Part shown: positions 16,381 through 62,978 of the stretch, in pieces | Layout: each line of letters starts with the position of its first letter | Numbering within the stretch: position 1 is the stretch's first letter | From: Terriglobia bacterium | GTDB taxonomy: Bacteria > Acidobacteriota > Terriglobia > JAJPHL01 > JAPKYU01 | NCBI GenBank assembly: GCA_965206645.1 | Contig: CBDBKE010000003.1 | Coordinates: forward strand, 736,001 to 800,000 | Length of the DNA stretch: 64,000 nucleotides | Reading direction: 5' to 3' | Translations under genes and position numbers: made by a program | Notes under the pieces: model-generated | Seen by the model: only the letters and a program-made list of their open reading frames with translations | Told to the model about the DNA's origin: nothing | The model's database searches: none

Positions 16381-16455
16381 AAGTTCCCGTTTCCGGCAAT
16401 TCATCTCCAACACCCGCTCAGCTGTGCGCTACTGGATGTATAACGCGCTTATCGG

Positions 16456-16471
16456 AAACTGACCCACTAGC
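16456..16471 (-). repeat. Lone IS1-like terminal-repeat motif
   Basis: AAACTGACCCACTAGC, identical at 62963-62978 and similar to the ends at 22129 and 25272. Confidence 0.6.
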
Positions 16472-19355: not shown

Positions 19356-20717
<1,362 letters not shown>

Positions 20718-21971
20718 TCACTCGACGGCGAACGCAAGTTCTTCTCCGAACTCCCGCGTGGCGGCCTCCCGCGGCACCACCACAATCCCCGAGTCGGTGA
20801 CATGATAGCCGCGGGCCTGGTCCTGCTCCAAATTAAACCCGATCTCGCTGTTCTCCGGAATCTGCACATCGCGGTCAATGATCGCCCGGCGGATACGGCT
20901 GTAGCGCCCCACGTTCACCCCGGAGAACAGGATCGAGCTGTCCACCTCAGAGTAGCTGTTGATGCGCACCGAGTGCGACAGCACGCTGCTGATCACGCGG
21001 CCGCCGCTGATAATGCAACCCGAGCCGACGATGGAATTCATGGCAACACCCACGCGGTGGCCTTCGTCGGCAAACACGAACTTGGCGGGAGGCGATTGCG
21101 GCGGGTAAGTCCGGATGGGCCAATGCGCATCGTAAAGGTTGAACACCGGACTCACCGCCACCAGGTCCATGTTGGCTTCGTAGTAAGCGTCCACGGTCCC
21201 CACGTCGCGCCAGTAAAGCTCTTTCTTGTTCTCATCAATGAAGTCGAAGGCATGGACGCGGTACTGCCCAATGGCTCGCGGCAGGATATCATGGCCGAAA
21301 TCGTGAGCGGAGGTGGCATCCTCGGCGTCCTGGCGCAGCGCTTCGACGAGCACCTGAGTACTGAAGACGTAGATGCCCATGGAGGCGCTGATCATCTCCG
21401 GATTATACGGGGAGCGCGACTGCGGAACGGCCGGCTTCTCCTCGAAACCGATCACGCGCCCGTCGCCGTCCACCTCGACCACCCCGAAGCGGTAGGCCTG
21501 CTCGGCCTTTTCCTGAATCGTGCCCACCGTAATCTCGGCTCCGGACCGCACGTGCTGGGCCACCATCCTGGCATAATTCATCTTGTAGATGTGGTCGGCG
21601 GCCAGAACCAGCGCGTAGCGCAGCTCTTCCTGTCCTACGATGCTGTACAGGTTTTGATAGACGGCGTCGGCGGTCCCCAGGTACCAATCTTCACTGATCC
21701 GCTTCGTGGGCGGCAGGACCTCGATGAACTCACCCAGCTGCGGCGCCAGGATGCTCCAACCCTCGCGGAGGTGGCGATTGAGCGACAGCGCCTTGTACTG
21801 AGTCAAGATGAAGATGCGGCGCAGTCCGGAATTAATGCAATTGCTGAGGGTAATATCAATGATGCGGTAGCTGCCCCCAAAAGTGACGGCTGGCTTGGCG
21901 CGGTCACGGGTCAGCGGGTATAGCCGCTCGCCGGCGCCTCCCGCCAGCAGAAGAGTCAACACCTGATTCAT
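20718..21971 (-). CDS. glgC: Glucose-1-phosphate adenylyltransferase
   Basis: LAGGAGERLYPLTRDRAKPAV, WYLGTADAV, ASMGIYVF, YWRDVGT; start MNQVL. Confidence 0.96.
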   Translation of the reverse strand: MNQVLTLLLAGGAGERLYPLTRDRAKPAVTFGGSYRIIDITLSNCINSGLRRIFILTQYKALSLNRHLREGWSILAPQLGEFIEVLPPTKRISEDWYLGTADAVYQNLYSIVGQEELRYALVLAADHIYKMNYARMVAQHVRSGAEITVGTIQEKAEQAYRFGVVEVDGDGRVIGFEEKPAVPQSRSPYNPEMISASMGIYVFSTQVLVEALRQDAEDATSAHDFGHDILPRAIGQYRVHAFDFIDENKKELYWRDVGTVDAYYEANMDLVAVSPVFNLYDAHWPIRTYPPQSPPAKFVFADEGHRVGVAMNSIVGSGCIISGGRVISSVLSHSVRINSYSEVDSSILFSGVNVGRYSRIRRAIIDRDVQIPENSEIGFNLEQDQARGYHVTDSGIVVVPREAATREFGEELAFAVE

Positions 21972-22326
21972 GTCGTTTCCGGCCAGAGGACCTTCTTGCC
22001 CAGGCTGGTTCGGGCAGCGTTCACCGCAGCTCCCTCCGGCGGCCTGGGCCGGCAGGGTGCGCCAAGCGGAAAATCCCCCCCCTAGTGTACCGCACAACAT
22101 GGTTTCAAAGCCACGCCAGGCAACCCAAGGTAACGGGTCAGTTTCCCGAGAAGCCGACTATTCGTCCAACTGAAACCGGGCCAACTGACACCGGGATTGA
22201 TAAACGCTAGCCCGTTTGTGGGGACCTATCCGGCATCGCTGGAGGCAAGGCGGTGTATCTCGTGCCGCTTGGACTCCGCCAGTACAGCATCGGAAGACCA
22301 CCGTCGCGACTGGTCGGCTCCCCGCG

Positions 22327-22355
22327 TTGACTTGCCTGCGGCCGGGGCGTAGCAT
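22327..22355 (+). promoter_or_regulatory. Sigma70-like promoter inside the kinase cassette
   Basis: TTGACT-17 bp-TAGCAT. Confidence 0.6.
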
Positions 22356-22382
22356 GGCCGCCAAGAGGGAGGCTTCTTGCCC

Positions 22383-22454
22383 ATGGTCGGCCGGACGCTC
22401 GGGCACTACCGCATCCTGGAGAAGCTGAGTTGGAGCAGGGGTGTGGCTGGATGA
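22383..22454 (+). pseudogene. 23-codon relic of another kinase N-terminus, overlapping the kinase start (ATGA)
   Basis: MVGRTLGHYRILEKL resembles MVGKTISRYRVLAKL in the downstream kinase; GGAGG RBS. Confidence 0.6.
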
Positions 22455-25057
22455 AGCCCGAACGTTGGCAGAAAGTCGAGCAGATCTATCACTCCGCTCT
22501 GAAACGAGAGCCGGTCCAGCGGGCCACATTCCTAGACGAAGCCTGCGGTGGGGACGATTCCCTGCGGCAGGAGGTCGAGTCGCTGCTGACGCAGGAGGGG
22601 GCGACGGGGAGCTTCCTGGAAGCGCCGGCTCTGGAGGTGGCCGCCCGTTCCTTGGCCCAAGAGCAAGCCGGGTCAGAGGGAGATGGGGGAGGCATGGTCG
22701 GCAAGACCATCTCCCGCTACCGGGTCTTGGCGAAGCTGGGTGCCGGCGGGATGGGCGAGGTCTATCGGGCCCACGATGAACGACTCCAGCGCGATGTGGC
22801 CCTGAAGGTGTTGCCCGCCCACATTCTGGCCGATGAGACGGCTCGCAATCGCTTCCGCAAAGAAGCCCTGGCTCTCTCCAAGCTGAAACATCCCCACATC
22901 GCCACCGTGTACGACTTCGACACCCAGGACGGGGTGGACTTTCTGGTGATGGAGTATGTGGCCGGGGCCACGCTGGCGAAGCGGATCACGGACGGTGCCT
23001 TACCCGAGAAGGAAGTGGCGCAGCTGGGGATCCAGATCGCCGCGGCCCTGGAGGAGGCCCAGGAGCAGGGCGTGGTGCATCGGGACCTGAAGCCGGGCAA
23101 CGTGATGGTGACCCCGAAAGGCCAAGTGAAGGTCCTGGACTTCGGGCTGGCCAAACTGGTGCGACCAGTAGCCGACACGGCTGCGACCATGAGCATGACG
23201 GAGACACCCGCGGCGGCGGGGACGCTGCCGTATATGCCGCCGGAGCAGTTGCAGGGCAAGGTGGTCGATGTGCGCGCGGATCTGTACGCGCTGGGGGCGG
23301 TGCTCTACGAGATGGGCACCGGACAGCGGGCCTTTCCGGAGCGGGAGTCGCATCGGCTGATCGCTGCAATCTTGCAACAGACACCGCCGGCACCGGGCGA
23401 AGTCAACAGCCAGGTTTCAGCGGGGCTGGAGAGCATCATCTTCAAAGCCTTGGAGAAGGACCCGGAGCGGCGCTACCAGTCGGCCCAGGAGTTGCGGGTG
23501 GACCTGGAGCGGCTGAGCGGGCCGGAGCCATTCCTGGCGACTCCGCGCAGGCCTGGTCTGACTCGCCGACAACTCGTCGCTATGGCAGGAGTGGCGCTCG
23601 TAGCCCTGCTGGCGGTGCCTTTGGGGCTAAATGTGGGCGGACTGCGCGACCGGCTGTTGGGGACAGCCCCTGCGCCACGGATTGAATCCATCGCGGTGCT
23701 GCCGCTCGCGAACCTCTCGGGTGATCCCGAGCAAGACTACTTCGCCGCGGGGATGCACGAAGCGCTGATCACCGACCTGGCCAAGATCGGGGGCTTCAAG
23801 CGGGTGATCGCACGCTCCTCGGCGATGCGCTACCAGGACACCGACAAACCGCTGCCGCAGATTGCGCGGGAATTGAACGTGGACGCCGTCATTACCGGGT
23901 CGGTGCTGCGTTCGGGCGACCGCGTGCGGATCACCGCGCAGTTGATCAACGCGGCCACTGAGGAGCACCTGTGGGCCGAGCGCTACGAGCGCGAGCTCCG
24001 CGACGTGCTGTCGCTGCAAAACGAAATCGTGGCGGCCATCGCCCGTGAGATCAACTTGCAGCTCACCCCGGAGGAGCAGACACGGCTGGCCAGCGCCCGC
24101 ACGGTCAATCCCGAGGCTCATGAGGCCGTTCTCCGGGGCAGCTTTCACATTGACAAGCTCAACTCGGAAGACATCGAGACCGCGATGCAGTACTTCGAGT
24201 TAGCGCTGGAGAAAGACCCGAATTACGCCCGGGCCTACTTGGGTATCGGCGGCGTCTGGTTCGTCCGCACCTTACTGGAGGTCGTGCCACCCCGTGAGGC
24301 AGGGCCAAGGGCGAAGGCGGCTGTGTTGAAAGCCCTGGAATTGGATGACACGCTCTCGGAAGCGCATTCGTTTTTGGCCTATGTTAGGTTTTCTTACGAA
24401 TGGGACTGGGCTGGCGCTCAGGCAGAGTTCCGGCGGGCGATCGAGCTCAACCCCAACTCTGCGGAGGTGCGCGCACTTTACGGCGATTTTTTGACCGCGA
24501 TGAACCGTCCGGAGGAAGCGACAGCGCACCTTGAGCGAGCGTTAGAATTGGACCCGTTCAATTTCAAATACCAGGTGATTTATGGTTGGCACTTGTTTTG
24601 TGTTCGCCGGTACGACGACGCCATCTCTCAGTTCCGCAAGGTGCTCAAAAAGTCACCTAACGACCGGTTTTCGCTGTTTAGCCTGACGACCGTCTTCATC
24701 GCGGCGGGAATGTATGCGGAGCATCGGGAATTAAATAAGAAGTTCATCAATGCCGGGCTGAGTACTGATGGAGTCGCCGAAGAGATTGAGCGTGGCTACG
24801 CGCAGGGAGGGTTCCAGGAGGCGATGCGACGGGGGGCGGAGATGCTGGCAGCGCAATCGAAACTAGCCCCCCCGATGCTTGTTGCGTATATGTATACATA
24901 CGCGGGGGAAAACGACCTAGCCTTGGAATGGCTGGAGAGATCCTACGAGGCACGAACCTTCGGCTTCCATTTTCTCAAGGCGGGTCCGGAATGGGATCCG
25001 CTGCGCGACGACCCCCGCTTCCAGGACCTGCTGCGCCGCATGAACTTCCCGGAGTAA
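22451..25057 (+). CDS. Hanks-type Ser/Thr protein kinase with TM helix, TolB-like domain and TPR repeats
   Basis: GAGGMGEVY, VALK, HRDLKPGN, DFGLAK, GTLPYMPPE, SIAVLPLANLS, TPRs, DPLRDDPRF. Confidence 0.95.
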   Translation: MKPERWQKVEQIYHSALKREPVQRATFLDEACGGDDSLRQEVESLLTQEGATGSFLEAPALEVAARSLAQEQAGSEGDGGGMVGKTISRYRVLAKLGAGGMGEVYRAHDERLQRDVALKVLPAHILADETARNRFRKEALALSKLKHPHIATVYDFDTQDGVDFLVMEYVAGATLAKRITDGALPEKEVAQLGIQIAAALEEAQEQGVVHRDLKPGNVMVTPKGQVKVLDFGLAKLVRPVADTAATMSMTETPAAAGTLPYMPPEQLQGKVVDVRADLYALGAVLYEMGTGQRAFPERESHRLIAAILQQTPPAPGEVNSQVSAGLESIIFKALEKDPERRYQSAQELRVDLERLSGPEPFLATPRRPGLTRRQLVAMAGVALVALLAVPLGLNVGGLRDRLLGTAPAPRIESIAVLPLANLSGDPEQDYFAAGMHEALITDLAKIGGFKRVIARSSAMRYQDTDKPLPQIARELNVDAVITGSVLRSGDRVRITAQLINAATEEHLWAERYERELRDVLSLQNEIVAAIAREINLQLTPEEQTRLASARTVNPEAHEAVLRGSFHIDKLNSEDIETAMQYFELALEKDPNYARAYLGIGGVWFVRTLLEVVPPREAGPRAKAAVLKALELDDTLSEAHSFLAYVRFSYEWDWAGAQAEFRRAIELNPNSAEVRALYGDFLTAMNRPEEATAHLERALELDPFNFKYQVIYGWHLFCVRRYDDAISQFRKVLKKSPNDRFSLFSLTTVFIAAGMYAEHRELNKKFINAGLSTDGVAEEIERGYAQGGFQEAMRRGAEMLAAQSKLAPPMLVAYMYTYAGENDLALEWLERSYEARTFGFHFLKAGPEWDPLRDDPRFQDLLRRMNFPE

Positions 25058-25365
25058 GCTTGGGACTCCCTCCCGCCCGGTAATCCCGGTAGACCGCGCT
25101 CGCGGTATAAGACAGGGCAGCAAGCAAACGTGACGCGGCATTATGTCGCTGTAGCGAAGCTGGTTTCTCCAAACTTTTTCGATAGGTTCCCACTTGTCGG
25201 CTAGCGTTTACCGATGCTGCCACGCCGCCTACTTGGACGTAAAACGCCCCTACCGTAAATTGACCCATTACCCAACCCGAAACCCGTCCACAACTCCAGC
25301 GGGTTTCGGCTGCTGCTATTCGATTTCAGATCTGTCACTCACAAACAAGACGGCGCAGAATTCCC

Positions 25366-25393
25366 TTGACTTCGGTCGGCAAACGCCTATGAT
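25366..25393 (+). promoter_or_regulatory. Sigma70-like promoter of rpsU
   Basis: TTGACT-16 bp-TATGAT upstream of a GAGGAGG RBS. Confidence 0.55.
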
Positions 25394-25438
25394 TAGCTGC
25401 CGAAGCTAACTCCACAGCAGCGAGGAGGTGTTTTCCGA

Positions 25439-25636
25439 GTGGCCGAAATCAGGGTACAAGAGGGAGAATCCCTCGAGAACGCCCTGCGCCGGTTCAAAAG
25501 GAAGGTACAGCAGGAAGATATCATTAAGGAGGTCAGGCGGCATTCCTTCTATTTGAAACCCGGCGAAAAGCGTCGAACGAAGGAAGCCTTGGCCAGGAAG
25601 CGAAACCGCAAGAAGATGCGGCGCGAGCAGGAGTAG
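25439..25636 (+). CDS. rpsU: 30S ribosomal protein S21
   Basis: GESLENALRRFKRK..YLKPGEKRR. Confidence 0.96.
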   Translation: MAEIRVQEGESLENALRRFKRKVQQEDIIKEVRRHSFYLKPGEKRRTKEALARKRNRKKMRREQE

Positions 25637-25934
25637 CGTTGCCAAGATGGGCTCTCCGTTCTCTGTGCTGTTGTTTGAGCTGGCTAACAACCCAGGTCGC
25701 CGTGGGCAGCGTGCTGCGGCCCTGGGGTAAGTGAATGCTTCCGGGAGTTGCACATTCTTCAAGCTGTTTACAGGTTTCCCACGGGCGGGAAAAAGGCAAC
25801 CCAAAGGCTGGCAGCACCTTGCGGGGGAATTTATGTCTCGATTTGGCTCCCTTCTCAAAGCAAGGCCGGGGGCCGAACAGGTCGGAGCTGCTGGCCGATG
25901 ACTCGAAACATGGGCTAGAGGGGGCGTGTGTCCA

Positions 25935-26237
25935 ATGGTCGAATACGCGGACAGGATCTTGAAGTGCGTGGATTGCGGTGCGGAGTTCGTCTTCACCGCC
26001 GGGGAACAGCTGTTTTTCGCCGACAAAAACTTTAAGAACGAACCGAAACGCTGCAAGGCGTGCAAGGGCAAACGAAATACCGCCTTGGGGGGGGCCGGCC
26101 ACGTCCGGGTGGAAACCACCACAAAGTGTCACCAATGTGGGAGAGAAACCACCGTTCCTTTCAAGCCCACTCAGGGGCGTCCGGTCTACTGCCGTGAGTG
26201 TTACCAGCAACGCCGCACGGCCTCGGCGGCGGTCTGA
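25935..26237 (+). CDS. Double zinc-ribbon (CxxC-x17-CxxC) protein
   Basis: CVDCGAEFVFTAGEQLFF..EPKRCKAC; CHQCG..VPFKP..RPVYCREC. Confidence 0.88.
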   Translation: MVEYADRILKCVDCGAEFVFTAGEQLFFADKNFKNEPKRCKACKGKRNTALGGAGHVRVETTTKCHQCGRETTVPFKPTQGRPVYCRECYQQRRTASAAV

Positions 26238-26331
26238 AGTCGTAGCCTGGCTAAATGAAGGTTGCCGACAACCTCTAGGGTGACTGCTCTGTTGACGGTC
26301 GCTGGGGCTCATCTCCACTAGAATCAAAAAC

Positions 26332-27723
26332 ATGCCCAGCTTTTTCGTGCAAAACTTTGGCTGCCGAGCTGCCCAGGCCGATGGCGCGGCCCTGGAGCAC
26401 GAACTGGCGACTCGCGGCTTGGCCCGCGCCGCCGAGGCCCGTACGGCGGACTTGGTGGTGCTAAATACCTGCACGGTGACTGCCTCGGCCGACGAGGATG
26501 CCCGCCAGGCCATTCGCCGCCAGTTCCGCAACAATCCCGGTTGCCGCATCCTGGTCACCGGCTGTTATGCCCAGCGCGCGCCGAACGAGCTGGCTGCGCT
26601 TCCCGGGGTGACCTGGGTGGTCGGGAATTCGCACAAGACCCGGATCGGGGAGATTGTGGCGGGCAGCGGAGCTCTGGTGCCTCTGTCGGCGCTCGGCAGG
26701 GCGCCAGCCCCGACAGCTTCGCCAGATCCGCCAGCTCCCGAAGCTCCGCCAGCTCCGCCAGCTCCGAAAACTCCGCAGGTCATCATCGGGGACATCTTCG
26801 CCCACACCGAGCTGCTGGCAGCGCCCGTCTTTGGCGCTGGGGCCGAGCGCACCCGGCCGAACGTGAAAATTCAGGACGGGTGCAACAACCGCTGCTCGTT
26901 CTGCATCATCCCCGCAGTGCGCGGGCGCAGTCGAAGCCTGCGGCCGGAAGCCGTCCTCGCACAGGTGCGCGCGCTGGAGCGCGCCGGCTACCGCGAGATT
27001 GTCCTCACCGGCATCAACCTGGGCCGCTACGGCCGCGACCTGGAGCCCCGCCTTAGTTTCCTGGCCATGATGCGCGCCATCCTGAGCGAGACGGTAATCG
27101 AGCGCATCCGACTCAGCTCGGTCGAGCCGCTGGACTTTACCAACGAGCTTCTGGAGCTGATGGCCAGCTCCTCCCGGATCGCCCGGCACGTGCACGCACC
27201 GCTGCAAAGCGGCTCGGACCGCGTACTGCGTCGCATGCGCCGCCGCTACCGCGCCGCGCATTACGAGCAGCGCCTGTGGCGCGCGCACCAACTACTGCCC
27301 GAGGCAGCCTTCGGTGCTGACGTGATGGTCGGCTTTCCCGGAGAAAGCGACGAGGACTTTGAGCAGACCCGGGCGTTAGTAGAGCGCCTGCCCTTCACCT
27401 ACCTGCACGTGTTCACCTACTCGCGCCGAGAGGGGACGCCGGCCGCCACCATGCCTGACCAGGTACCCGTCCGCGTGGCGCGGGAGCGCAACCGCCTCTT
27501 GCGCGAGCTGGCCGCCCGGAAGAACCTGGAATTTCGCCGCCGCCAGGTGGGGAGCCGCCTGTCGGTGATCACGCTTGAGGCCGGCACGCTTGAGGGCGGG
27601 TCGGCGCTGAGCAACAACTACCTGAAGGTTCGCCTACGTGGATCGCGGCTCGGGCCCAACCGTCTCGTGGAGGCACTGATCACTGGCGTAGAAGAACCTG
27701 GCCTGGCGGGCGTGGTCTTCTAG
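26332..27723 (+). CDS. mtaB: tRNA methylthiotransferase MtaB (radical SAM)
   Basis: NFGC, NTCTVT, TGCYAQ, KIQDGCNNRCSFC, LHVFTYSRREGT. Confidence 0.9.
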   Translation: MPSFFVQNFGCRAAQADGAALEHELATRGLARAAEARTADLVVLNTCTVTASADEDARQAIRRQFRNNPGCRILVTGCYAQRAPNELAALPGVTWVVGNSHKTRIGEIVAGSGALVPLSALGRAPAPTASPDPPAPEAPPAPPAPKTPQVIIGDIFAHTELLAAPVFGAGAERTRPNVKIQDGCNNRCSFCIIPAVRGRSRSLRPEAVLAQVRALERAGYREIVLTGINLGRYGRDLEPRLSFLAMMRAILSETVIERIRLSSVEPLDFTNELLELMASSSRIARHVHAPLQSGSDRVLRRMRRRYRAAHYEQRLWRAHQLLPEAAFGADVMVGFPGESDEDFEQTRALVERLPFTYLHVFTYSRREGTPAATMPDQVPVRVARERNRLLRELAARKNLEFRRRQVGSRLSVITLEAGTLEGGSALSNNYLKVRLRGSRLGPNRLVEALITGVEEPGLAGVVF

Positions 27724-62962: not shown

Positions 62963-62978
62963 AAACTGACCCACTAGC
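62963..62978 (-). repeat. Lone IS1-like terminal-repeat motif
   Basis: AAACTGACCCACTAGC, identical to 16456-16471. Confidence 0.6.

Follow-up and report, generated by a model that had tools for sequence, protein, structure and literature searches.

A Ser/Thr kinase gene between glgC and rpsU of a Terriglobia bacterium lies in an inserted, transposase-less unit, very probably a MIC with IS1-group tips

Cassettes without a transposase are already known, and are seldom documented as cleanly as the one described here. MIC231 of Bacillus cereus, a mobile insertion cassette (MIC) of the IS231/IS4 family, is presented in the passages cited (PMC6199540, PMC3129680) as one or more passenger genes between IS-type inverted repeats without a transposase, with a duplication as long as that of the cognate IS, related IS elements in the same genome, ends shared by different cargo, a conserved region beside the left repeat and a quoted length of 0.7-3 kb. 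The present cassette, which at 3144 bp is within or near that range, is alike in these respects; it differs from MIC231 as there presented by being IS1-type with an 8-bp duplication, by belonging to a family with much longer, asymmetric arms (~115-215 bp, of distinct L and R types) and members of up to 8.6 kb, and by its mobilisation in trans, which was demonstrated for MIC231 and which we infer here. In Xanthomonas, the cited parts of one report (PMC4337579) describe Tn3-family MICs with TALE and other effector genes, likewise a family of transposase-less cassettes with common inverted repeats and varied cargo, with tandem clusters, solo inverted repeats, other IS elements nested in or between the cassettes and one direct-repeat sequence in many copies, to which the recurrent CTGGCGGG spacer corresponds here. 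Those MICs, however, have Tn3-type ends and 5-bp duplications instead of IS1-type ends and 8 bp, and the cargo here consists of a signalling kinase and miscellaneous genes in a host from an environmental genus (PMC4337579, parts cited). For IS1 itself, the sections cited give 8-9-bp duplications and GGnnnTG ends (PMC10425158 Table 8; PMC6807381; PMC12428005), and a mini-IS1, with a marker between IRL and IRR, is said to transpose in work given as preliminary (PMC12428005).

MITEs are also non-autonomous, possess terminal inverted repeats and a duplication and rely on a cognate transposase, but they are short and non-coding, whereas the unit studied here holds a complete expressed-type gene of 868 aa. 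An integron cassette has a single attC at one end and is inserted site-specifically by an integrase, with no duplication. Integron cassettes resemble the present ones by functional analogy only (varied single-gene units, conserved boundaries, sometimes arrays), and in contrast to them the latter have inverted transposon tips at both ends and an 8-bp duplication, and neither show nor require attC/attI logic or an integrase. A composite transposon was considered and rejected, the arms of 194 and 215 bp being without transposase and not two complete IS copies.

Within the window, i.e. the whole stretch of 64,000 nucleotides that was analysed, the segment 22129-25272 is an insertion. We are confident, though not certain, that it is a non-autonomous MIC with IS1-group tips and a kinase passenger (22323-25057), inserted between glgC and rpsU with duplication of the 8-bp sequence CAACCCGA (Table 1). 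An earlier note on this DNA had reported the inverted 16-mers (14/16 matching), the direct 8-mers (7/8 matching), a TTGACT-17-TAGCAT promoter and the absence of a transposase, and all of these, including the coordinates, were verified in the window sequence.

Table 1. Features of the cassette and its neighbours (window coordinates)
Feature	Position	Strand	Evidence or remark
glgC-like gene, left neighbour	20718..22100	-	Pfam NTP_transferase 4.7e-64 + LbH_GLGC
Left 8-bp target-site duplication copy, CAACCCAA	22121..22128	.	1 substitution vs empty site
Left terminal tip, GGTAACGGGTCAGTTT	22129..22144	+	14/16 to family consensus tip GGTAGTGGGTCAGTTT
L arm, 194 bp	22129..22322	+	Tip + L-type subterminal region common to other cassettes
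Promoter-leader module, arrived with cargo	22323..22450	+	Promoter scan, repeat analysis, loci alignment
Cargo gene, 868-aa Ser/Thr kinase with TM segment, TolB_N-like domain and TPR repeats	22451..25057	+	Pfam
R arm, 215 bp	25058..25272	-	Outer 145 bp (25128-25272) match R-type end model
Right terminal tip, AAATTGACCCATTACC; inward reading GGTAATGGGTCAATTT	25257..25272	-	14/16 to consensus tip
Right 8-bp target-site duplication copy, CAACCCGA	25273..25280	.	Identical to empty site
rpsU, right neighbour	25439..25636	+	Pfam Ribosomal_S21 9e-20

Each 16-mer is the outer tip of an arm in an imperfect inverted repeat, the L arm and the reverse complement of the R arm aligning over ~100 bp. With nhmmer the L model matches C3:758130-758274, inside the L arm, where a 15-bp tandem duplication occupies 22166-22195, and the R model matches C3:761128-761272 (E 3.7e-36). 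An Rfam scan of 21900-25500 (E up to 0.1) returned no match, so the arms represent no known RNA family. Other than antisense overlaps, the kinase is the sole long ORF in the unit, and tblastn with the IS1-type transposase of the genome gave no match inside C3:758129-761272, the same unit in contig coordinates. The promoter-like TTGACT-17-TAGCAT was located by promoter scan at 22327-22355, in a promoter-leader module that also contains a vestige of a further kinase start (~16 codons from an ATG at 22383) and that is present in 13 of the 15 other aligned loci. The cargo kinase scores 1.5e-48 for Pkinase, 2.4e-5 for TolB_N and matches several TPR families in Pfam, and its VALK, HRDLKPGN and DFG catalytic motifs all read as intact. 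Parts of the kinase are matched, at 0-2 differences, by contigs of one RNA library (X19); their strand and level are not given and DNA carry-over is possible, for which reason we do not count them as kinase expression.

The empty site that the earlier note had proposed to look for in relatives exists. In G001, the closest relative and a genome of the same genus, glgC adjoins rpsU, the unit is absent and a single CAACCCGA stands exactly at the junction; its alignment covers 20700-22126 of the window at 97.3% and 25273-26400 at 95.7%, with contiguous coordinates and a 6-base overlap. In G003, as well as in G007 and G008, which belong to another family, glgC also lies beside rpsU and the unit is absent. 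Read data consisted of Logan contigs from four of the 24 listed runs, among which one contig of metagenome run X9 joins 22120 to 25273 and thereby represents the empty form. A second skipping contig, from run X4, passes from 22097 through 52 other letters to 25307 and represents a diverged relative like G003. The right junction of the occupied form is bridged in runs X4 and X5; the left junction is bridged by no listed Logan contig of these four runs, the contigs ending within the repeated arms.

The L and R arms are a genus-restricted family. When the genome was scanned, as had been suggested, for inverted tip pairs with 8-bp duplications, using L and R end models built from the very genome that they were searched against, 59 tip-bearing ends (34 L-type, 25 R-type) were recovered, giving 24 adjacent convergent pairs. 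Eight of these have a flank identity of at least 7/8 (perfect in three), a level reached by 4.4% of 956 non-partner pairings; two of the eight are bounded by the recurrent junction spacer and are therefore not independent, and a good duplication is absent in the 16 remaining pairs. Flanking repeats that agree at 7/8 or 8/8 positions were seen for at least six L...R cassettes, with cargo as varied as an alpha/beta hydrolase, an S4-domain protein, an SBBP propeller protein, an aldo/keto reductase and ORFs without a family, and no IS1-type transposase was found among their scanned ORFs. A second precise empty site was obtained for the cassette C2:192568-195447, which is absent from G003 with one 8-mer copy there. 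The cassette C2:777120-778525 is also missing from the corresponding G003 region, whose divergence is too great for an exact empty site to be recognised, and for C3:194357-197663 the right flank alone was matched in the flank search of G001 and G003. One family member (C3:481914-482490) is, with 577 bp, of MITE size.

Judged by their sequence, the cassette ends are IS1-family ends. Agreement with GGnnnTG holds for the family consensus tip (GGTAGTG) and for the right tip of the window (GGTAATG), and fails by one base for the left tip (GGTAACG); the statement in the earlier note that the IRR of E. coli IS1 begins with GGTAATG is correct for the IS1A end next to insB, the other end being GGTGATG. 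A 347-aa ORF in the genome matches Pfam DDE_Tnp_IS1 (PF03400) with 35.3 bits against a cut-off of 24.1, the same-genome transposase scores 73.2 bits for NCBIfam NF033558 (IS1), which is below the cut-off of 100, and relatives of the transposase are named 'IS1 family transposase' by JGI and NCBI. Intact IS1-family elements, for which the earlier note had suggested looking, were found at C4:1596644-1600092 (TSD 7/8; transposase gene at C4:1596668-1597708) and C4:1910685-1912760 (TSD 8/8), with tips that match the family consensus at 14/16 and 13/16, whereas in the element with exact consensus tips (C2:14856-19501) the transposase gene is broken by an IS1380-like insertion. Outside this genome, 80 foreign loci with a relative of the transposase contained 33 inverted tip pairs, flanked by perfect 8-bp duplications in 23 cases and by a 7/8 one in a single case, and pairs with the same 16-bp tips come from several phyla. 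The elements with partner transposases measure 1.8-4.4 kb and carry passenger genes. With E. coli IS1 they share GGnnnTG ends, 8-9-bp duplications and a partner enzyme that matches Pfam DDE_Tnp_IS1, but E. coli IS1 has insA/insB' with a frameshift, an arrangement absent from the partner enzymes here, which are single ORFs of ~275 aa and score below the NCBIfam IS1 cut-off, and the ends here diverge past the first 7 bases. Single-ORF subgroups of IS1 are listed in ISfinder. As IS1-family transposase genes lie between the very same 16-bp tips, we regard the cassette as a MIC of this IS1-family group, and an IS1-family transposase is the putative agent that mobilises it in trans. The insertion polymorphism shows past movement only, and the window cassette may no longer be mobile, since each of its tips deviates from the consensus at 2/16 positions, the left tip departs from GGnnnTG and the duplication has one mutated base.

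Coincidence could by itself supply repeats of the kind from which this work started, as the window contains 536 pairs of inverted 16-mers, 0.5-10 kb apart, that match at 14/16 or better, with one pair alone flanked by 8-mers of at least 7/8, and six mononucleotide shuffles held 235-320 inverted pairs each, with 0, 0, 0, 0, 0 and 1 so flanked; taken alone, the observation of 16-mers and 8-mers is only weakly significant. It is the ~100-bp extended inverted repeat, the membership of the ends in a repeat family and the exact empty site in a relative that make the unit real, and as G001 has this empty site the chance reading is refuted and keeps a practically negligible probability. The same empty site bears on the idea that two independent solo ends or MITEs came to flank a resident kinase gene and mimic one unit. 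Solo and back-to-back ends of the L/R-arm family are frequent in this genome, yet separate insertions would each have made a duplication of their own and would have left the kinase in the relative, whereas G001 is without the kinase and both ends together and has one 8-mer copy; contradicted in this way, such an origin is extremely improbable.

Precise excision leaves a single-repeat empty site as well, and the mutations in the duplication and in both tips, which indicate that the insertion is not very recent, would suit a cassette that was ancestral at glgC-rpsU and that recombination between the 8-bp repeats then removed, precisely, from G001 and in separate events from others. Against such losses stands that G003, G007 and G008 too are without the unit while glgC still lies beside rpsU, so that several independent precise losses would be required, that no close copy of the kinase occurs anywhere in G001 (best 39-50% aa) and that the corresponding gene in G002 and G003 sits at another, conserved locus; we consider this history very unlikely. 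Slightly less so, though still improbable, is that the cassette is mobile but was moved by another family making 8-bp duplications, e.g. an IS256-type enzyme, with the likeness of the tips to IS1 being coincidental. The link between enzyme and tips comes from sequence comparison, and a Mutator/IS256-family transposase does lie between the tip pair at C4:428150-430435. The flanks of that pair, however, are identical at merely 5/8 positions, IS elements of several families are nested inside other cassettes as well, and the tips that bracket IS1-family transposase genes come with the perfect 8-bp duplications counted above in the foreign pairs. Other identities for the ends were examined and dropped: a REP/REPIN-RAYT system, suggested by the GTAG within the tips and by the palindromic back-to-back junction, because the tips bracket DDE transposases with 8-bp duplications; a tyrosine-recombinase core site of the form arm-8 bp-arm, for lack of a second arm outside the 8-mers of the window; and the end of a nested IS1380-like element as the inner arm module, as the IS1380-like ends lie elsewhere in the locus concerned (L006).

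For the MIC of the IS1-family group that we favour, the following course can be proposed. An IS1-family DDE transposase supplied from elsewhere in the cell would have bound the tips and moved the cassette in trans. The cassette landed in the glgC-rpsU intergenic region in this lineage, duplicating its 8-bp target. The cargo may have been taken from a resident chromosomal kinase locus by recombination through the shared promoter module, which adjoins other L arms as well. Over 22323-23552 the cargo has 89.6% nucleotide identity to a G003 gene without cassette ends, none being found around it in the locus sequences searched, and the similarity to this non-cassette locus begins only at 22323. In the sister species G002 and G003 the corresponding kinase gene lies at a locus whose syntenic counterpart in this genome is C3:154-158 kb, and homology switches inside the promoter module. 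Out of eight Pkinase genes in the genome one is in a cassette, and the best paralogue of the cargo kinase in the same genome has 51% identity. The cargo kinase thus looks relocated from a conserved locus and not duplicated, and the earlier suggestion that cassettes expanded the kinase-TolB-TPR paralogues is unsupported, as only this one kinase is in a cassette and no duplicate exists.

Knowledge of how such elements operate is left unchanged by the window cassette. It offers a clean natural case in which a cassette devoid of transposase moved an entire regulatory gene, encoding a membrane sensor kinase and equipped with a promoter of its own; the exact states before and after are preserved in sister genomes, and the partner IS group can be identified. 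The window cassette indicates that IS1-type elements in environmental bacteria gave rise to cargo-carrying derivatives, and it provides a signature for annotation, consisting of the 16-bp tip, the 8-bp duplication and the L and R arms. Whether the L/R-arm elements amount to more than scattered MICs, namely to a genus-specific, transposon-based gene-cassette platform, we regard as doubtful. The shared promoter-leader module often follows the L arm, one insertion site, flanked by an identical duplication in both genomes, has different cargo in G001 from that found here, and in arrays neighbouring cassettes are joined by a constant R tip-8 bp-L tip junction which recurs in all three genomes searched for it. 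If such a platform existed, cargo might be exchanged via the promoter module, as with the kinase, which in G002 and G003 is at its native locus but here is cassette-borne. The constant junction could then represent, as a fixed copy, a circle or tandem junction of the IS1 type and serve as a preferred target or recombination site, somewhat integron-like without an integrase.

As to the neighbouring genes, the alignment of relatives to glgC begins at residue 24-46, while the ORF itself extends to 22100, and the true start is probably an ATG inside it, at 21971, which leaves ~157 bp to the insertion point. A consensus scan of the minus strand gave no outward promoter from the L arm towards glgC. 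On the other side, rpsU has a promoter-like site of its own at 25366-25393 (promoter scan), outside the cassette.

The window unit, a kinase gene between a left (L) and a right (R) arm in the intergenic region of a glgC-type gene and rpsU, has the termini that the earlier note described, every coordinate of which was borne out on reading the sequence: its 16-bp outermost tips are inverted and match at 14 of 16 positions, and its flanking 8-mers are direct and match at seven of eight. Taken alone, these tips and 8-mers are a weak observation, the window holding 536 inverted 16-mer pairs (at least 14/16 identical, 0.5-10 kb apart), among which the window unit alone has 7/8 flanking 8-mers, and one of six shuffled sequences also giving a pair of at least 14/16 with 7/8 flanks. 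The window unit is NEVERTHELESS real because the repeat extends well beyond 16 bp, because its ends belong to a dispersed family and, decisively, because an empty site exists. Its left end aligns, with gaps, to the reverse complement of the right end over about 100 bp (arm pair I1).

The empty site, which the earlier note had proposed to seek by aligning glgC-rpsU in relatives, was found in G001, a genome of the same genus (glgC protein 97% identical). Its matches to window 20700-22126 (97.3%) and 25273-26400 (95.7%) are contiguous with a six-base overlap, the unit is absent and one copy of CAACCCGA stands at the glgC-rpsU junction. Moreover, glgC adjoins rpsU without the unit in G003 (same genus) and in G007 and G008 (same order, another family), and in one contig from metagenome run X9 position 22120 is followed immediately by 25273. 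The window unit is a real insertion.

Searching for the 16-mer with up to three mismatches gave five matches in the window, compared to 0.79 expected, and 106 in the genome (contigs C1-C4, the window lying in C3), many of which have one of two inner sequences, L-type or R-type. End models for both classes gave 69 and 75 matches in the genome, partly overlapping because L and R ends are alike, and reduction left 59 ends that bear a tip, 34 of them L and 25 R. Flanking 8-mers match at 7/8 or 8/8 in eight of the 24 adjacent convergent tip pairs (three perfectly), compared to 4.4% of the 956 pairings of non-partners. A recurrent junction spacer delimits two of these eight, which are therefore not independent; this leaves six cassettes, in none of which an IS1-type transposase was found when their ORFs were scanned. 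Tip pairs with poorer flanks have cargo including an alpha/beta hydrolase and an S4-domain protein. The 2880-bp cassette also has a precise empty site: in G003 the alignments of its two flanks overlap by 10 bases, and the 8-mer is present once. Arm matches number 31 in G001 and 31 in G003, and none were found in G004 (72% complete), G005 and G007; present in two of five genomes searched, the arms are genus-confined as far as sampled. A solo R-type end in the window consists of tip GCTAGTGGGTCAGTTT and about 40 bp of R arm, and the identical 16-mer recurs once with no family sequence behind it. Several cassettes of this genome contain a nested IS1380-like element (DDE_Tnp_1_4; locus L006:806-1950), which at least 25 places in G003 match at 74-83% identity.

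Coordinates of the window unit and related features (window positions as read from the window sequence; C1-C4, contigs of this genome)
Feature	Location	Length	Flanks	Remarks
Left flanking 8-mer	window 22121-22128			CAACCCAA
Left tip	window 22129-22144			GGTAACGGGTCAGTTT
Right tip	window 25257-25272			AAATTGACCCATTACC
Right flanking 8-mer	window 25273-25280			CAACCCGA
Promoter-like TTGACT-17-TAGCAT	window 22327-22355
Promoter module	window 22323-22430
Cargo gene	window 22451-25057	868 residues
Solo R-type end	window 16431-16471 (-)
Second copy of solo-end 16-mer	window 62963-62978 (-)
Window unit	window 22129-25272	3144 bp	7/8	Ser/Thr kinase
Cassette	C1:52447-54040	1594 bp	7/8	ORFs without family match
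Cassette	C2:192568-195447	2880 bp	7/8	672-aa ORF, no family match
Cassette	C2:777120-778525	1406 bp	8/8	378-aa ORF, no family match
Cassette	C3:194357-197663	3307 bp	8/8	nested IS1380-like fragment; other ORFs without family match
Cassette	C4:758246-766860	8615 bp	7/8	SBBP propeller protein, aldo/keto reductase, cytochrome P460, nested IS1380-like element
IS1-family element, first	C4:1596644-1600092		7/8	tips GGTAGTGTCTCAGTTT
IS1-family element, second	C4:1910685-1912760		8/8
IS1-family element, third	C2:14856-19501			consensus tip GGTAGTGGGTCAGTTT exact at both ends
Promoter module copies	C2: 100785, 444031, 441418, 502528, 527656
Promoter module copies	C3: 440784, 168044, 156565
Promoter module copies	C4: 2128296, 764337, 2097689, 1929211
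Back-to-back R tip/L tip	C2: 436241/436250, 441258/441267, 478018/478027, 496607/496616, 522198/522207, 527719/527728, 95614/95623
Back-to-back R tip/L tip	C3: 302480/302489; C4: 68634/68643, 1915752, 2128458/2128467
Tipless arms (examples)	C1:264438-265327, C4:2194198-2195644, C4:762607-762787, C4:1928924-1929086, C4:2196796-2196925

An IS1-family transposase with nearly the same ends, as the earlier note had suggested looking for, is present in the first element on C4: its 347-aa ORF matches Pfam DDE_Tnp_IS1 above cut-off, scores 73.2 bits with the NCBIfam IS1 model (below the cut-off of 100) and has many relatives of about 275 aa, named 'IS1 family transposase' at source. In the third element the transposase gene is split by an IS1380-like insertion. 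At 80 foreign loci with a relative of this transposase, from several phyla, the tip motif was found in inverted pairs around the transposase gene; 23 of 33 such pairs have a perfect 8-bp duplication and one a 7/8 duplication, and elements with these tips measure 1.8-4.4 kb, with passengers including Bro-N, P63C and HTH_3-M78. Single-ORF IS1-family transposases with tips GGTAGTGnnTCAGTTT (foreign loci L036-L115, and L011 and L003) were seen in Acidobacteriota, Nitrospirota, Planctomycetota, Chloroflexota, Verrucomicrobiota and others, a passenger gene (Bro-N, P63C, HTH_3-Peptidase_M78 or unknown) being divergently placed. According to PMC10425158 (Table 8), PMC6807381 and PMC12428005, IS1 makes 8-9-bp duplications and has GGnnnTG ends, and the E. 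coli IS1A ends begin GGTAATG and GGTGATG. Since these published tables and ends agree with them, the IS1 facts given in the earlier note (GGnnnTG ends, a GGTAATG start, 8-9-bp duplications) were correct.

The window unit is a mobile insertion cassette (MIC) of an IS1-family group. Judged by sequence, it fits in every respect the definition given for MIC231 and the Xanthomonas Tn3-type MICs (PMC6199540, PMC3129680, PMC4337579), with which it shares IS-type inverted repeats, a passenger gene, no transposase, a cognate duplication and a related IS in the genome. The same sources hold precedents even for the odd features, namely a conserved region beside the left repeat, tandem clusters and a direct-repeat sequence common to many copies. 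For MIC231, these sources describe trans-mobilisation as demonstrated (PMC6199540, PMC3129680), and we infer that the window unit moved in trans. No description of an IS1-family or kinase-carrying MIC was found in a non-exhaustive full-text term search of the literature.

The cargo protein comprises an N-terminal region, a complete kinase domain with intact catalytic motifs, one membrane segment, a TolB_N-like domain and TPR repeats. An expansion of the kinase family via cassettes, as once proposed, is not supported: the end-model search of the genome found family ends at this gene and near none of the other seven of its eight Pkinase genes, and the best paralogue is 51% identical. The cargo gene has its closest relative in G003, a gene with 89.6% nucleotide identity over 22323-23552 and about 74% beyond, around which cassette ends were sought and not found. 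The flanks of that gene and of a fragment in the relative G002 are syntenic to C3:154-158 kb, where this genome has the same promoter module followed by a different, ankyrin-like ORF, and in G002 homology passes from this locus to the cassette within the module. The cargo thus corresponds to one promoter-plus-gene unit, which in sister species occupies a conserved locus. At five other aligned loci, too, the module comes after the L arm, and the simplest reading is that the cargo would have been captured or exchanged by recombination through this shared module, which may be a recombination point for gene swapping.

The module, a TTGACT-17-TAGCAT type promoter with a leader and the first 6-16 kinase codons, recurs as DNA before unrelated genes (kinases, an ankyrin-like ORF, a cyclase-like start) and is present at 13 of 15 other loci aligned. 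Contigs of four metagenome/RNA runs (X4, X5, X9 and X19) join kinase-end-like sequence (25056) to the module start (22323) with 4-33 letters between, a head-to-tail order that identifies 22323 and 25057 as the natural limits of a unit.

Junctions of the form R tip-8 bp-L tip, with a near-constant spacer CTGGCGGG, occur at 11 sites in this genome, five in G001 and three in G003, and at none in a reversed-pattern control. Their L tips form a distinct subtype starting CGTAGAG, and their flanks are unrelated past about 115-140 bp; such a site may represent a circle or tandem junction that has become fixed, or else a favoured target. Sequence from the inner part of both arms (60-90 bp) is also found where IS1-type tips are missing. 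Its outer boundary is sharp and shared by the copies, which lie both as convergent pairs separated by 0.9-1.5 kb and back-to-back around a spacer of about 27-35 bp, and are a second layer of the same repeat system. One insertion site with the same 8-bp duplication AAAGCGAG is shared by G001 (L124, G001:C10:899400-902400) and this genome (L005, C2:776820-778825): the G001 cassette measures 2055 bp, has a complete L arm and carries different cargo, part of which is 92% identical to C4:960399-961288, and that of this genome measures 1406 bp and includes just 28 bp of L arm. The recurrent junctions, tipless arms and differing cargo at one site allow a bolder reading, which we consider unlikely, of the L/R-arm elements as a recombining cassette platform.

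Near both ends of C3, C3:185303-197663 and C3:902161-911215 have the same tips, flanks and IS1-type transposase gene (191105-191908 and 904610-905413) in inverted order, with paired positions 185303/911215, 192406/904112 and 194357/902161, and are either a large inverted duplication or an assembly repeat. Likewise, C1:264438-265327 equals C4:3754-4642.
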